Source: Escherichia coli (GTDB lineage: Bacteria > Pseudomonadota > Gammaproteobacteria > Enterobacterales > Enterobacteriaceae). From it: a stretch of DNA of 64,000 nucleotides. Below, one piece after another: positions 32,912 to 38,943 of the stretch. Position numbers and translations under genes: made by a program. Under the pieces are notes generated by a model, which did no database searches, was not told where the DNA came from, and saw only the letters and a program-made list of their open reading frames with translations. Numbering within the stretch: the first letter of the stretch is position 1; the number at the start of each line of letters is the position of its first letter. The stretch lies in assembly GCF_003334305.1 (NCBI RefSeq), contig NZ_QOWS01000015.1; one strand, given 5' to 3'.

Positions 32912-34351
32912 TCAGGCGTTACCGGTAAAAAGTTTCCCATCGCGCACCAGTTCACGCGGATAGCTGTTTTTCAATCGCGAACCAATCCGTTTGGCTAAAC
33001 CAATCGGTTGATGCTGGAAAGTAACCAATACATCATCCGCCACTGGCGCGGCTTGCGGGTAAACATCGCGCCCGCGATACCACTCCTCCGCTTCCTGCGG
33101 TGTCAGCTCGAATGCATTCATATTATCGGGTGAGGCAAGAGCAATAACCGCTTCATGCTGCCAGCGATAACCTTTGTTGTGCGTCTCGGCAAGTTTAATC
33201 CCCAACCGAGAAAATCGGACTTTACCGATCAGGGCTTCAATGCCCACCGGGAACAACCACAGTTCTTTGTCACGCTGCCAGAGGCGCAGGTTTTCATCCC
33301 AGTTTAAGCCAACACCTGCAGCCGCCTGACGAATTTGTCCAGCTTCGCGATCTTTCACCGGGCTGAACGGGAAATTGCCCACTTTGTATTTGGGGGCGGG
33401 TAAGGCGGGAATCGCCTGAGTTTTACGCAGACGAGCAACGAAGAAGCCTTCGCAGTCGTAAATTTGTGGGAAAACATGCAAAAAGCCTTCTTCGGTCAGC
33501 GCTTTGTTTGCACCAGGGAAGAGATCGCCAAGTGGTAAAAACTCTACTGCGTCGGGGTAAGTCTCTTTCAGCCACAGGCAAACGGCTTCGTTTTCTTCCT
33601 GGTTTAAGGTACAGGTCGAGTAAACCAGCGTACCACCAGGACGTAATGCATGAAAGGCGCTGTCGATAAGCTCCCGTTGTGTAGCTGCGATTTCCTGATT
33701 GCTTTCTGGTGACCAGTTTTTTAGCGCATCGGGATCTTTACGCACCACGCCTTCGCCAGAGCAGGGAGCGTCCAGCAAAATGGCATCGAACATTTCTGGC
33801 ACTGCCGCACCAAACACGCGGCCATCAAAATGTGTGAGCGCAACATTACTGATGCCACAGCGGCTGATATTGGCATGTAACACTTTTACCCGACTGGCGG
33901 AAAACTCATTGGCAAGGATTGCCCCTTCGTTATTCATCCGCGCGGCAATTTGCGTCGTTTTGGAGCCTGGCGCAGCTGCGACATCCATCACCCGCTGTGG
34001 TGCATTATCGTCAGCAAACAAGGCGGCAACGGGCAACATTGAACTGGCTTCCTGAATATAAAACAGGCCGCTTAAATGCTCGGCGGTACTACCCAATGGC
34101 AATGCATCTTCATTGTCGCGTTCAATCCAGAAACCTTCTTCACACCACGGAATTGGCGTAAGCGTCCAGCCATAAGGAGCGGTTAATTGCAGGAAATCAG
34201 CAACGGAGATTTTCAGCGTATTAACGCGAATGCTGCGGCGCAACGGGCGCTGACAGGCGGCAAGAAAATCATCAAATGAGAGCGTCGAAGGCATCGCTTC
34301 GCGCATTTGTGTCAGAAAGGCGTCCGGGAAATAAACGGTGTGTTGGGCCAC
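32912..34351 (-). CDS. rsmF: 16S rRNA m5C1407 methyltransferase
   Basis: 479-aa product if the GTG at 34349-34351 is used ([13 protein letters not shown]); an in-frame ATG at 34357 would add 2 residues. Confidence 0.9.
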
Positions 34352-34430
34352 GAGCATGTACCACTGGCAAAAAAACAGGCGCGCAGTTTAGCATAAACGC
34401 TCCGGCGCAGGCACGCCGGAGCAGTGGGCA

Positions 34431-37064
34431 TTATTTGGGAAGCGCAGTTCCCCATTCACGCCACTCTTTCGGTTCACTTTCCTGCAACAGGAAGTGTTTG
34501 CCTTCCTGGGCTTTCGGTGCCAGTGGCGTACCCGGAGGCGTGGCGAAGGCGATGCCGCCACGGATAAACTGGTTAAAGGTGCCGGTTTTCACTACGCCGC
34601 CCGTCAGACCAAAGTCCAGACTGTAACCCGATGCCAACCAGAAGACGGAATTGTTACGCACCAGGTGTTGATAGCGTTTACTGATGCGCATCGCAATCAT
34701 CACGCGATCTGACAATGTCCCCAGCGTCATTCCTGTAACCGTACCGACTTCCAGACCACGGAACAGCACAGGCGTACCAATACCTAACGAACCGGCTTCC
34801 GGCGCTTCAACAATAATGCTTAAGCCATCCAGGTAACGCGAATCAGTAATGGTGGCCTCTTGTAATTCAAAGTCGCGGCGAGGATTGCCCCGGCCTGGTT
34901 CGACGTTGATATACGGCTGGAGGATAGTATCTAGATGCTCAACGCCCGCGGCTGAAATTTGCGGTGTGACCACCGAGAAGCGCGTACCGCCGCGGGCGAA
35001 GGTCTGGACATACTCCGGATAGAGCACCGCCTTTGCCTGTACTTCATTGCGCGCGGTAATCAGATCCAGCGTCTGGATTTGCCCGATATCAATACCGAGA
35101 TAGCGAATTGGCATCCCGACCGCCAGTTTTCCGGCATCGAAAGCGTGAAGCGTAATCTGCCCACCAACCGCACGGGCCGCTGTTTCGGAAGCATACAGAA
35201 TTCGTTTGTCGCCTTTACGCTGACTGGCGCTGGCACCGCTGAGGTTATCGAAGCTAATGGCTCCCTTTAATGCTCTGGAGAGCGGGGATGCCTGTACGGT
35301 CAGGCCACTACCATTCAGCTGAACTTTCGCCCCGCCTTCTGCCCAGAACACGCTATTGCTGGTCAGAAGGTTGCGATACTCCGGCTTAATATGCAGATCG
35401 ATATCAAACGCGTTAGCTCGCGGACGGACGGTAATAACTTCACCAACTTCAAATTTACGGTACAGCACTACCGATCCTGCCTGCACATCCGGCAGCGTCT
35501 CTGCACTCAAACTCACGGTTGTGGTGGGTAAATCGCTAAGGCTGTTCTCCAGCGCTTTTTCCAGATTGGCATACAGTGGATAGCTGGCTTTCATCTCGCC
35601 TTTATCGCCCGGCAGAATACGTATCCCGCCGTTAATCCATTCTGAGGCGCTGGCACCGAGAAACTCAACGCCATCCAGCCCCACCTTCACGTCGACACGG
35701 CTGTTGACGACAAATTTGCTATCGCCTTTTACCAGTTCTCGATGCTGAGGCTCGATGGCGACGGTAAAGGTGACGCCTTTGCTGGTGAGTTTACGATCGA
35801 TAACCTGGCCTACCTGCACGCCGTGAAGAATGAGCGGCTGACCAGCATCAATACCGTAACTTTCCGGCGCGGTCAGGGTCAGCGTCAGAACATCAGGTTC
35901 ATGCAGCAGTGCTTTTTCGCCTGGCACAACAACGAACTCTTTGCGTGGCTCGCCATCGCCGGGTACCAACTCGAAGGTTTTGCCAGTCAGCAGGGCGCTG
36001 AGATTGGCATCGCTAAGGGATAATTTCGGATTACGTAATTCGATGCGGGTATTTTCACGAAGCAGGGTAACGACGCTGGGATCAACTGTCATTTCCCCAG
36101 TGACTTTACCACCAGGATTTAAATCCAGTTTAGTTAGCTGTCCGACTTCCAGCCCCTGATACATTAACGGCGTCGAGTCGGCGGTCAATCCGGCCCCACT
36201 CGGCAGTTCCAGTTTTATTATTACGCCACGCTGGCTGTGGGCCAGATCTTCATACAGACCAAAGGTATCTTCCGCCTCGGCAGGTTTCGACTCTTCAGGT
36301 GAATCGAAGGCAATCGCACCGTTAACCAGTGCCGCCAGACTTTCCAGTTTCACCTTCGCGCCACTGACACTGACGTTGGCATCAACGCCGGAAACGTTCC
36401 AGAAACGGCTACCTTTTTTCACCAGATCGGTAAAACGCCGCTCGATCAGGACATCAATCACCACGCCTTGCTTGTTGGGATTGATGGCATAGTCGTAGAC
36501 TTTTCCCACCGGGATCTTGCGGAAATAGACCAATGAACCGCTGTTCAGCGAACCGAGATCGGGAGCTTGCAGGTGGATCATCAGATCGCCGTTATCCAGC
36601 CGATACTTCGGTTGGGTATCGAGTGCGACAAAGTGATCCTGCTCTTTACCTTTACCCGGCATCATGCCGATATAGTTCCCACCGACGAGGGCGTCCAGCC
36701 CGGAGACACCTGCCAACGATGCTTTTGGCGTCACCAGCCAGAATTGAGTCTCTTCGCGCAGCGCATCTTTCATATCGGACTTGATGCTGACCTTGACTTC
36801 AATCTTACGAAGATCGTCGCTGAGGCTGATATCCTGCACTGTTCCGACTTCAACGCCCTGATAACGAACAGGCGTACGGCCCGGGACAATACCATCCGCC
36901 GACATAAAGTCGATGGTGACGGTATTACCCCGGTCCTGATAACTGTCCCAAATCAGCCAACCGGCAATCATTAGCGCGATGAACGGCAGCAGCCAGAAAG
37001 GTGAGATACGGCGTTTATTTTTAATCTGCGCTTCAGTCGTCGAAGCGGGCGTTTCCTGACTCAT
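34431..37064 (-). CDS. letB: lipophilic envelope-spanning tunnel protein (seven tandem MCE domains)
   Basis: 877-aa product from ATG (cat 37062-37064; [10 protein letters not shown]); repeated MCE-like segments visible in the translation; start overlaps the letA 3' end by 32 nt. Confidence 0.9.
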
Positions 37065-38316
37065 GTGCATCCCAAAGTAAGCGGCTGTCCAGCCATTCCA
37101 CAGCAAGAATAGTCAAAATTACCGCTGCGCCGAAATAAAACGCAGCCGGTCCCATAGTAAAAGCGAGGATCTGATCGCGATTAATCAGCGACATGGTTAA
37201 AGATATGACAAACAGGTCGAGCATCGACCAGCGACCAATCCAGGTCACCATCCGCAGTAACAGAATGCGTGTGCGTAAACCTTGCTGGCATTTAAAATGA
37301 ATGCTCAACAGTAAAGTGAACATGACGATCACTTTAGTAAACGGTACCAGAATACTGGCGATAAACACGATTCCCGCAACCGCAATGTTGCTACTTGCCA
37401 GCGACATAATTCCGGAAAGAATTGTATCTTCCTGCCGTCCTCCGTTCAGATAAATGATAGAAATAGGCAACAGGTTGGCAGGTAACAACAAAACGATTGA
37501 CGCTAACAGCGCCGCCCAGCATTTTTGCAAACTATGACGGCGACGCAGGCGTAGCGGGATATGGCAACGCGGGCAGCGACCACGCTGATCAGGATAGCCG
37601 GTAAAATGGCACCCAAGACAGACACGAAGTTTCTCGTCCCTACGCGTAGCGGGGCGCTGCGGATAAAATCGCTCCCACAGCTCCTCGACATTAAGATGTG
37701 ACAACGTCACCGTCGTTAAAATCACCAACGCCACAAAAGAGAACAAGCCGACACCCGCCTGGATATGGGCATAATCCTGTACCTTTATAGAAGCAACGCC
37801 AATGCCGACCAGGTAGATATCCAGCATTACCCACTCTTTAAGTCGCTCAAGCATCAGCAGTACCGGACGTAAATTCATTCCCAGTCGGTTACCAAACCAT
37901 AAATATGCTATGGAGGACACCAGAATGAGGGGGGCACCAATAACGCAGAAAAAGACCATCGCCCCCGTTATCGTATCGCCCTGTTTGGTCATTTGCCAGA
38001 TGCCTTGCATGACGTTGGCGTCGATACGAATACCTAACAGCCAGATATGCAACAGCGGTTCGCCCCAGGCAAACGGCATCAGCAACAGCATGGTGAAAGC
38101 CATTGCCGCCAGGCGCGTTAGCGACCAGTCGCGCCCGTCGCGAATTTTTGCCTGACAGCGCGGACAATAGGCACTCTGATGAGAATTTATCTCGGGCAGG
38201 CTAAACAGCATGTCACATTGCGGGCAACGTTGGTAATCACCACGCGGCAGTTCCTCGCCGATTGCCCTCACTGTTATCTTTTTTGTCGGCGTAATTTGTG
38301 GTGTGTTAAGAGCCAT
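37033..38316 (-). CDS. letA: PqiA-like inner membrane protein LetA
   Basis: 427 aa; two Cys4 zinc-ribbon-like motifs (CPQCD..CPRCQ; CLGCH..CPRCH) plus hydrophobic segments. Confidence 0.9.
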
Positions 38317-38445
38317 GACGTGCCAAATGTAATAAGAATTAACATTAATATTAACCCATGATTGGAATGATCTTGAGCATTAACGCATTTAATGCTTATT
38401 TTAATAGGCTGGCAGTTCCAGGTAAGACAACCAAGTGATTATATA

Positions 38446-38943
38446 ATGAACAAAACAGAATTTTACGCGGATTTAAATCGCGACTTTAACGCGCTGATGG
38501 CGGGAGAAACCAGTTTTCTGGCAACGCTTGCGAACACCAGTGCGTTGTTATACGAGCGTCTCACTGACGTAAACTGGGCAGGTTTTTATTTGCTTGAGGA
38601 CGATACACTGGTACTAGGACCATTTCAGGGCAAAATTGCCTGTGTCCGGATACCCGTCGGGCGCGGGGTGTGCGGCACTGCGGTTGCCCGCAATCAAGTG
38701 CAGCGTATCGAGGATGTTCACGCGTTTGACGGGCATATTGCCTGTGATGCGGCGAGTAATTCTGAAATTGTTCTGCCGCTGGTGGTGAAAAATCAGATTA
38801 TTGGTGTTCTTGACATCGATAGTACCGTCTTCGGTCGCTTTACAGACGAGGACGAGCAAGGCTTACGTCAGCTTGTGGCACAGCTTGAAAAAGTGCTTGC
38901 AACGACGGATTACAAAAAATTCTTTGCGAGCGTCGCAGGATAA
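38446..38943 (+). CDS. msrC: free methionine-(R)-sulfoxide reductase (GAF domain)
   Basis: 165-aa product from ATG 38446 (MNKTEFYADLNRDF); the track ORF starts upstream at 38392. Confidence 0.85.
   Translation: MNKTEFYADLNRDFNALMAGETSFLATLANTSALLYERLTDVNWAGFYLLEDDTLVLGPFQGKIACVRIPVGRGVCGTAVARNQVQRIEDVHAFDGHIACDAASNSEIVLPLVVKNQIIGVLDIDSTVFGRFTDEDEQGLRQLVAQLEKVLATTDYKKFFASVAG

Follow-up and report, generated by a model that had tools for sequence, protein, structure and literature searches.

What does the 32-nt overlap between letA and letB tell us about how these two genes are translated? LetA and LetB assemble into one complex in very unequal numbers, and the sequence-only reading of this locus took their overlap to imply tight translational coupling. 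Here, we address this question in a window of 64,000 nt of Escherichia coli DNA (i.e. the whole stretch that was analyzed) by combining the identity of the two proteins with a comparison of the junction across related species and more distant loci.

The letA-letB operon and its proteins

This locus is the lipid-transport operon letA-letB (yebS-yebT) of E. coli, encoded on the minus strand, as are all features described below. The letA gene (yebS; 37033..38316) is an open reading frame annotated in RefSeq that encodes a 427 aa inner-membrane subunit of the PqiA family. The letB gene (yebT; 34431..37064), also annotated in RefSeq, encodes a protein of 877 aa in which seven MCE domains follow an N-terminal transmembrane (TM) anchor. 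An E. coli genome in RefSeq that is 100% identical carries yebT at 3132-5765 and yebS at 5734-7017 with an equal 32-nt overlap, and among 5426 complete E. coli genomes, 5425 have the region. The genes are ordered letA-letB and then rsmF, with no pqiC-like (DUF330/PqiC lipoprotein) gene; a LetB-type neighborhood without DUF330/PqiC has been designated a type IV neighborhood (PMC5561183). The earlier identification of the pair as letA-letB is borne out by Pfam, by NCBIfam, by full-length matches to the PDB entries 9n8w and 6v0c, and by the LetAB paper (PMC13017536). Set against the published E. coli LetAB (PDB 9n8w/9n8x and 6v0c-6v0j; PMC13017536, bioRxiv 10.1101/748145), the window holds the same system in a natural E. 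coli strain, with nothing substantive different as judged by full-length matches.

LetA matches the PqiA family (PF04403) twice in Pfam, scores 700.9 bits against TIGR00155 (NCBIfam; cut-off 260.35), and is aligned by 9n8w_A over residues 1-427 (E = 7e-290). The two Pfam matches correspond to the transmembrane domains of module 1 (residues 66-217; 37666..38121; E = 1.2e-38) and module 2 (residues 263-418; 37063..37530; E = 8.4e-43). The latter includes GRWSMLDLF at residues 361-369, fitting the GRWSM-psi-D-psi-F motif described for the C-terminal LetA module (PMC13017536). By the family criterion, each transmembrane domain is preceded by a CxxC-Xn-CxxC zinc ribbon with n = 11-18 (PMC13017536). 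The two Cys4 motifs that had been noticed in the sequence alone are both present: C31/C34/C51/C54 in the N-terminal ribbon (38155..38226; n = 16) and C233/C236/C248/C251 in the C-terminal one (37564..37620; n = 11). Zinc-ribbon matches of LetA in Pfam are weak (best E = 0.01), while approximately two Zn per LetA were measured by ICP-MS and both motifs were shown to bind zinc (PMC13017536).

Near its N-terminus, LetB has a putative transmembrane helix at approximately residues 22-39 (36948..37001), read from the translation as a hydrophobic stretch after the basic KNKRR; such a single anchor per chain is in line with the LetAB complex, where LetB contributes six TM helices (PMC13017536). The proposed seven-fold repetition holds, as the suggested PF02470 (MlaD/MCE) HMM scan counts exactly seven domains (E = 4.7e-19 to 1.5e-4). 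Class A comprises MCE1 (residues 45-137; 36654..36932; E = 4.7e-19), MCE3 (residues 280-353; 36006..36227; E = 9.2e-10), and MCE6 (residues 636-724; 34893..35159; E = 2.3e-12). Class B comprises MCE2 (residues 163-220; 36405..36578; E = 7.1e-8), MCE4 (residues 394-455; 35700..35885; E = 4.8e-7), MCE5 (residues 514-589; 35298..35525; E = 1.5e-4), and MCE7 (residues 747-808; 34641..34826; E = 9.7e-11). The recurring core, first described as V..G..V..VG, is recovered in the sharper form [VILM]x[YFLH]x[GK][VILF]x[VI]Gx[VIL] exactly seven times in LetB, once per module, with a mean of 0.0065 in shuffled sequences. The modules are mutually 17-33% identical in pairwise protein comparisons, and a search for DNA-level tandem repeats in letB found none, leaving the repetition at the protein level only.

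The PDB chain 9n8w_B covers LetB residues 1-877 (E = 0, 1953 bits) and 6v0c_A covers residues 46-877. In the published complex, one LetA resides in the inner membrane beneath a LetB hexamer (1 LetA : 6 LetB; PMC13017536), in which the seven MCE domains form seven stacked rings enclosing a hydrophobic phospholipid tunnel of ~225 Å across the periplasm (PMC13017536, bioRxiv 10.1101/748145). Phospholipid binding by this hexamer tunnel has been established experimentally for the E. coli protein that matches ours over its full length, and by this likeness would extend to LetB here. The system's substrate had been called poorly defined, which is roughly right in that specificity and transport direction are open, but phospholipid is accepted as its cargo (PMC13017536).

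The paraquat-inducible PqiABC system of E. coli resembles LetAB in having a two-module PqiA-family membrane protein followed by a multi-MCE protein, and LetB modules 1 and 2 align with PqiB modules 1 and 2. However, PqiB carries three MCE domains, ends in a helical needle, and has a lipoprotein partner (PqiC), whereas LetB has seven MCE domains; the MCE count separates LetB (6-8) from PqiB (3) (PMC13017536) and places the protein described here with LetB. LetA scores 210.8 against the PqiA equivalog NF011683 (cut-off 562) and LetB scores 475.3 bits against the PqiB equivalog NF008070 (cut-off 525). Because both fall below the equivalog cut-offs, LetA and LetB are paralogs of PqiAB and not PqiAB itself. 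The junctions differ as well: a gap of 4 nt lies between pqiA and pqiB, and pqiB-pqiC share a classic 4-nt ATGA overlap, in contrast to the 32-nt overlap of letA-letB. The 32 bp overlap, the seven modules, and the two zinc motifs are thus real, but all have been published already; what the overlap means for translation is the subject of the following sections.

The overlap and the letB start codon

On the minus strand, the letA stop codon (TGA) occupies 37035-37033 and the letB ATG 37064-37062. The letB frame lies one base off the letA frame, and the LetA frame continues ten codons past the letB start region, resulting in a 32-nt dual-coding overlap (37033..37064) that specifies LetA residues 418-427 and LetB residues 1-11. 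The coordinates given earlier for this overlap are exact, agree with RefSeq, and correspond to the '32 bp' of PMC13017536. In that study, LetA residues 419-427 and LetB residues 1-13 are without cryo-EM density. As neither stretch is resolved, nearly the whole overlap codes for disordered tails, i.e. the C-terminus of LetA and the N-terminus of LetB.

The length of the overlap varies. Of 80 Enterobacteriaceae species, 76 have an overlap of 32 nt and four one of 44 nt, while more remote LetAB loci show overlaps of 56, 38, 11, and 8 nt or gaps of 25 and 55 nt, a length set by the variable, disordered tail of LetA. The LetA homolog search returned only relatives of at least 78% identity, and the distant lineages came from a search of representative proteins. 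Across these sequences, the overlap length is not what is conserved; the letB start context is. The overlap itself is probably a tolerated by-product of a disordered LetA tail of variable length.

The comparative data support the annotated letB start, as its ATG (37064) is unchanged in 80/80 Enterobacteriaceae species. An ATG 6 nt upstream (37070) was rejected as the start, being missing in 20/80 species. A TTG at 37106 was rejected likewise: the variation in the extension that it would add is radical in the letB frame (e.g. W to L/S and L to Q) and synonymous in letA.

The frame relationship also bears on whether programmed +1 frameshifting within the overlap could yield a fraction of fused LetA-LetB protein. 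Relative to letA, the letB frame is indeed +1, and it is open for ~48 nt upstream of the ATG, and both termini to be joined would be cytoplasmic (as can be gathered from PMC13017536), making a fusion topologically possible. In addition, a metagenomic representative (P0225, 747 aa) is predicted as one protein with two PqiA and two MlaD domains, but it may be an assembly or gene-calling artifact. No slippery or stall motif is recognizable; as read from the sequence, CUU-UGG comes without a stop, a rare codon, or an upstream Shine-Dalgarno (SD) stimulator. Moreover, LetA and LetB are separate chains in the published structure. Frameshifting is therefore an extremely improbable account of the overlap.

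A proposed initiation region embedded in letA

Nowhere in the two genes are synonymous sites more strongly conserved than right ahead of the letB start. Synonymous entropy was scanned in 1210 windows of 14 codons over letA and letB, with the overlap excluded, and the 15 lowest windows are all confined to codons 390-417 of letA, with a minimum of 0.28 bits against a median of 1.25. By synonymous entropy and nucleotide conservation, the most extreme segment comprises letA codons ~401-417 (37066..37116), the putative letB translation-initiation region, and conservation reaches moderately to about -77. Within this segment, UUUGGGA is invariant in 80/80 species. It contains a GGGA SD-like element (37070..37073) that lies within the codons for LetA W415-D416, at a distance of 5 nt from the letB ATG, and is marked by conservation and by predicted anti-SD pairing. 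The element is weak, with four pairs, one of them G-U; its anti-SD duplex is predicted at -4.0 kcal/mol, versus -1.5 for the region upstream of letA. The TGG-GAN-NNNN-ATG spacing is retained in three distant loci (L083, L085, and L088), and in four lineages the letB ATG lies exactly 4 nt past the W-D/K codons (W415-D416 in E. coli). Because the strongest synonymous conservation and the invariant UUUGGGA sit just upstream of its start, letB appears to have its own embedded initiation region.

By itself, conservation at synonymous sites does not tell a region of ribosome binding apart from some other function of the RNA. The ~50-80 strongly conserved nt with which letA ends might instead be a dedicated regulatory RNA element that tunes LetB, either as a site for an sRNA or RNA chaperone or as a structure opened by letA translation. 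Such an element would fit a synonymous conservation that exceeds any other in the two genes and stretches further upstream than a minimal SD requires. However, the junction folds no more stably than shuffled sequence (MFE z = -0.15), and RNAalifold found no consistent structure in the near-invariant sequence of 58 close relatives, nor after three distant sequences were added. An Rfam scan of 34200-38600 (E ≤ 1) returned no family. In length, the conserved span would also roughly correspond to a 30S initiation footprint together with a U-rich tract ahead of it, which speaks against a regulatory RNA as well. We regard this alternative as very unlikely.

The conserved element would then be a letB initiation region within the last ~17 codons of letA, consisting of a U-rich tract, UUUGGGA, 5 nt, and AUG. 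From this embedded site, letB would be translated mainly by independent initiation, which would be more frequent than that of letA and thereby provide for the 6:1 ratio of subunits. The contribution of ribosomes that reach the end of letA would at most be to keep the letB site unfolded. Taken as a whole, this explanation (a letA-letB operon, an overlap that is a by-product, an embedded initiation site, and mainly independent letB initiation) is one that we consider quite probable.

Other sequences around the junction and the operon end were inspected as well. A small GGCUG/CAGCC hairpin at 37095-37082 is missing from the distant loci. No convincing sigma-70 match for an internal letB promoter was found near the junction, and promoter-like sites in the region are no more numerous than chance predicts (3 versus 4.0 expected). 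A GC-rich stem-loop of 11 pairs (8 G-C) lies 8 nt past the letB stop (34398..34423), and related species have such a stem-loop with different stem sequences; it is probably an operon-end terminator or stabilizer.

Translation of letB relative to letA

Tight coupling by termination-reinitiation would require ribosomes at the letA TGA to back up by ~32 nt to the letB AUG and initiate anew, making LetB synthesis dependent on that of LetA and in step with it. The two genes are co-directional and overlapping, the overlap is maintained throughout the Enterobacteriaceae and recurs in several distant LetAB loci, and subunits of heteromeric complexes are enriched among overlapping gene pairs (PMC10666635). 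In being co-directional, overlapping, and destined for one heteromeric complex, letA-letB resembles the well-described coupled pairs with short overlaps (ATGA or TGATG; PMC6728339, PMC10666635). Unlike those pairs, its overlap is 32 nt instead of 4 or 1 nt, its upstream stop lies far downstream of the start, its products assemble in a 1:6 ratio, and letB has a conserved SD-like element of its own.

The step from the overlap to tight translational coupling is unsupported as stated, in view of the 1:6 complex, a functional non-overlapping refactor, the distance dependence of reinitiation, and this SD-like element. Reinitiation in a 1:1 fashion cannot supply LetB, because it yields at most one LetB per LetA, and six LetB are needed for each LetA in the complex (PMC13017536). 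In reinitiation pairs, the stop and the start overlap or are only a few nt apart (-4, -1, up to about -8), whereas the letA stop lies 32 nt beyond the letB start. Native E. coli pairs reinitiate efficiently at overlaps of 4 or 1 nt, and a separation of 14 nt costs 40-80% of reinitiation while 38 nt nearly abolishes it, as measured for starts downstream of the stop and not 32 nt upstream of it (PMC10666635). In addition, a refactored plasmid with non-overlapping letA and letB served as the functional wild-type reference in deep mutational scanning, under plasmid-borne and not chromosomal expression (PMC13017536). Finally, ortholog junctions vary between a gap of 55 nt and an overlap of 56 nt, with the start context retained. 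We therefore consider tight coupling unlikely.

The very strongly conserved ~50-80 nt that close letA might also act together with the dual-coded 32 nt, as an element dedicated to translational control that would fix or adjust the 6:1 output of LetB relative to LetA. Such an element could work via unmasking that depends on letA translation, or via a trans-acting RNA or protein. This idea strikes us as rather improbable, and mainly independent initiation at the embedded site is the reading that we prefer.

LetAB belongs to a small set of candidate pathways by which phospholipid may move in bulk from one membrane of Gram-negative bacteria to the other. To the published description of this system, our analysis adds support for the annotated letB start, the placement of almost all of the overlap in disordered tails, and a conserved feature that would be the embedded letB initiation region and not the length of the overlap. 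For a complex with a 1:6 subunit ratio, a long gene overlap should not be taken as a sign of tight coupling.

The letAB locus and its products

The window is E. coli chromosome, and several complete E. coli genomes match the 4.15-kb stretch around letAB at 100% identity. The region was found in 5425 of 5426 complete E. coli genomes, one being without it; its matching places number 5428, one of them on a plasmid record. In the annotated E. coli record (L001), rsmF, yebT (letB, "lipid-binding membrane homeostasis protein") and yebS (letA, "membrane integrity lipid transport subunit") lie on the window's minus strand, with msrC, proQ and prc on the other side of letAB, on the opposite strand. letA (38316-37033, minus strand, 427 aa) is separated from msrC (yebR) by a 129-bp AT-rich divergent intergenic region (38317-38445), and letB (37064-34431, minus strand) encodes 877 aa. 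LetA and LetB each align end to end with 9n8w, the solved LetAB complex, and these whole-length matches show that the identification as letA-letB is right. Every element listed in the sequence-only reading is already published, LetAB being known in detail, including its 32-bp overlap.

LetA scores above the cut-off of the curated PqiA/YebS family model and contains two PqiA domains (Pfam), with a GRWSMLDLF motif at residues 361-369. The two Cys4 motifs proposed from the sequence are present as CxxC-Xn-CxxC at residues 31-54 and 233-251; they are zinc ribbons, and about two Zn are bound per LetA (PMC13017536). In P0225, a metagenomic representative protein of 747 aa, two PqiA domains are followed by two MlaD/MCE domains in one predicted protein; this is either a genuine PqiA-MCE fusion or an artefact of assembly or gene calling. 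A record titled Chryseobacterium sp. 18061 (L064) carries a typical enterobacterial letAB locus (LetA identity 79%), probably owing to contamination or a mislabelled assembly.

The seven MCE modules claimed for LetB correspond to exactly seven Pfam PF02470 (MlaD/MCE) matches (E-values 4.7e-19 to 1.5e-4), at residues 45-137, 163-220, 280-353, 394-455, 514-589, 636-724 and 747-808. Each module holds one copy of the core motif [VILM]x[YFLH]x[GK][VILF]x[VI]Gx[VIL] (seven copies; 0.0065 in shuffled sequence). Pairwise identity among them is only 17-33% (published range 17-28%), and no tandem repeat was found at the DNA level in letB. MCE1-7 (34641-36932, minus strand) fall into two sequence classes in the order A-B-A-B-B-A-B: class A (modules 1, 3 and 6) has short pore-lining loops and PqiB MCE1 as its nearest PqiB module, and class B (modules 2, 4, 5 and 7) has longer loops and is nearest to PqiB MCE2. 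Six orthologues, with LetA identity as low as 34%, keep this block pattern, which suggests that LetB grew by duplicating an A-B unit. The classification was not found stated in the LetB/MCE papers whose text was searched. Ring3 and Ring6, the two LetB rings that increase detergent resistance when deleted, are both internal class A modules. Shortened LetB frames running from the conserved start occur in a few species-panel genomes, with 726 aa in Citrobacter amalonaticus AUH_CA_2023_1 and 539 and 88 aa in two further loci; such early-ending frames are possibly pseudogenes or sequencing errors.

The cargo of LetAB is phospholipid. Purified LetAB is enriched in phosphatidylethanolamine and depleted in cardiolipin, a bias that may or may not reflect substrate specificity. 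The remark that the substrate is poorly defined was a fair one. Eight nucleotides after the letB stop, between letB and rsmF and just upstream of the adjoining rsmF start region, lies a GC-rich 11-bp stem-loop (34398-34423, minus strand), with no more than a weak U-tract after it (GUUUAUGCU). The stem-loop recurs in related species (e.g. loci L012 and L081) with other stem sequences, indicating that the pairing is kept by compensatory changes, and is probably a letAB terminator or mRNA stabiliser.

A fixed letB start and a variable overlap

The letA stop TGA (37035-37033, minus strand) lies inside letB, whose ATG is at 37064-37062 (minus strand). The 32-nt overlap is exact from these coordinates and the same in RefSeq (5734-5765 of L001). 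The letB frame is shifted one base relative to that of letA; programmed frameshifting to produce a LetA-LetB fusion protein is extremely unlikely.

The letB start was compared using letAB loci fetched from 80 Enterobacteriaceae species (LetA identity 77-97%). The ATG at 37064, giving MSQET..., is invariant in all 80. An in-frame ATG 6 nt upstream (37070) is ACG or ATA in 20 of them. The letB-frame ORF remains open further upstream, and an N-terminally extended LetB was also considered; the nucleotide changes in that part leave LetA unaltered and are radical when read in the letB frame (W to L/S, L to Q, M to T), so this stretch does not encode LetB. The annotated start at 37064 stands.

Of the species in this panel, 76 have a 32-nt overlap; the other 4 have lost the TGA, which makes LetA four residues longer and the overlap 44 nt. 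More distant pairs were taken from a 50%-identity representative library and the encoding contigs; their LetB is 876-912 aa where the whole gene is on the contig. Here, the genes overlap by 56 nt (L083, LetA identity 50%), 38 nt (L085, 44%), 11 nt (L088, 37%) or 8 nt (L086, 39%), or are separated by 25 nt (L087, 38%) or 55 nt (L089, 34%). The paralogous E. coli pair pqiA-pqiB has a 4-nt gap. In E. coli, L083, L085 and L088, exactly 4 nt separate the conserved LetA Trp-Asp/Lys codons from the letB ATG (TGG GAN NNN NATG), and the LetA tail beyond them varies in length and sequence. It is thus the letB start that stays in place, and the length of the overlap measures the reach of the LetA tail. 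In E. coli, the overlap encodes LetA 418-427 and LetB 1-11, almost wholly within segments that the cryo-EM structure leaves without density (LetA 419-427 and LetB 1-13; PMC13017536), and dual coding would be tolerated because both proteins are disordered there.

A putative letB initiation region within letA

Synonymous-codon entropy was measured at amino-acid-conserved, degenerate codons in 69 distinct gap-free sequences (the window and 68 fetched species), using 14-codon windows (n=1210) with the overlap excluded. The 15 lowest values all fall in letA codons 390-417, directly 5′ of the letB ATG (minimum 0.28 bits; median 1.25; 5th percentile 0.91), and codons there such as ACT, ATT, CTT, CTG, TTA and CTT are invariant or nearly so. 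UUUGGGA ends 5 nt before the AUG and does not vary among the 80 species, and a U-rich tract lies just 5′ of it in all four lineages sharing the TGG GAN NNN NATG arrangement. The duplex predicted between UUUGGGA and the 16S anti-SD (-4.0 kcal/mol) resembles that of neighbouring proQ (-4.3) and is stronger than that of the letA upstream region. letA itself has essentially no Shine-Dalgarno match (best duplex -1.5 kcal/mol), which would be consistent with low LetA translation.

On the simplest reading of this conservation, the last ~17 letA codons would contain an ordinary but strongly conserved letB translation-initiation region. A special regulatory RNA element at the junction is a very improbable alternative, as neither a conserved RNA structure nor an unusually stable one was found there and the letAB region matches no Rfam family. 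Promoter-like signals in the region were not above chance.

Overlap and translational coupling

The overlap had been taken to imply tight translational coupling, which by itself it does not, and the published data do not support it. Strict termination-reinitiation, in which ribosomes finishing letA would go on to start letB, is unlikely on three grounds. The complex contains one LetA and six LetB (PMC13017536), a ratio that one-for-one reinitiation is unable to deliver. Deep mutational scanning used, as its functional wild type, a plasmid with the genes refactored to non-overlapping ORFs (PMC13017536). For native E. coli pairs, a distance of 14 nt lowers reinitiation by 40-80%, and at 38 nt hardly any is left (PMC10666635); the stop was moved upstream of the start in those experiments, so that for a -32 arrangement they are indicative but not conclusive. 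Common overlaps are 4, 1 and 8 nt, longer ones being reported as rare (PMC10666635). We consider it likely that most letB translation starts independently, at the site embedded in letA, with ribosomes completing letA at most holding that site unfolded.
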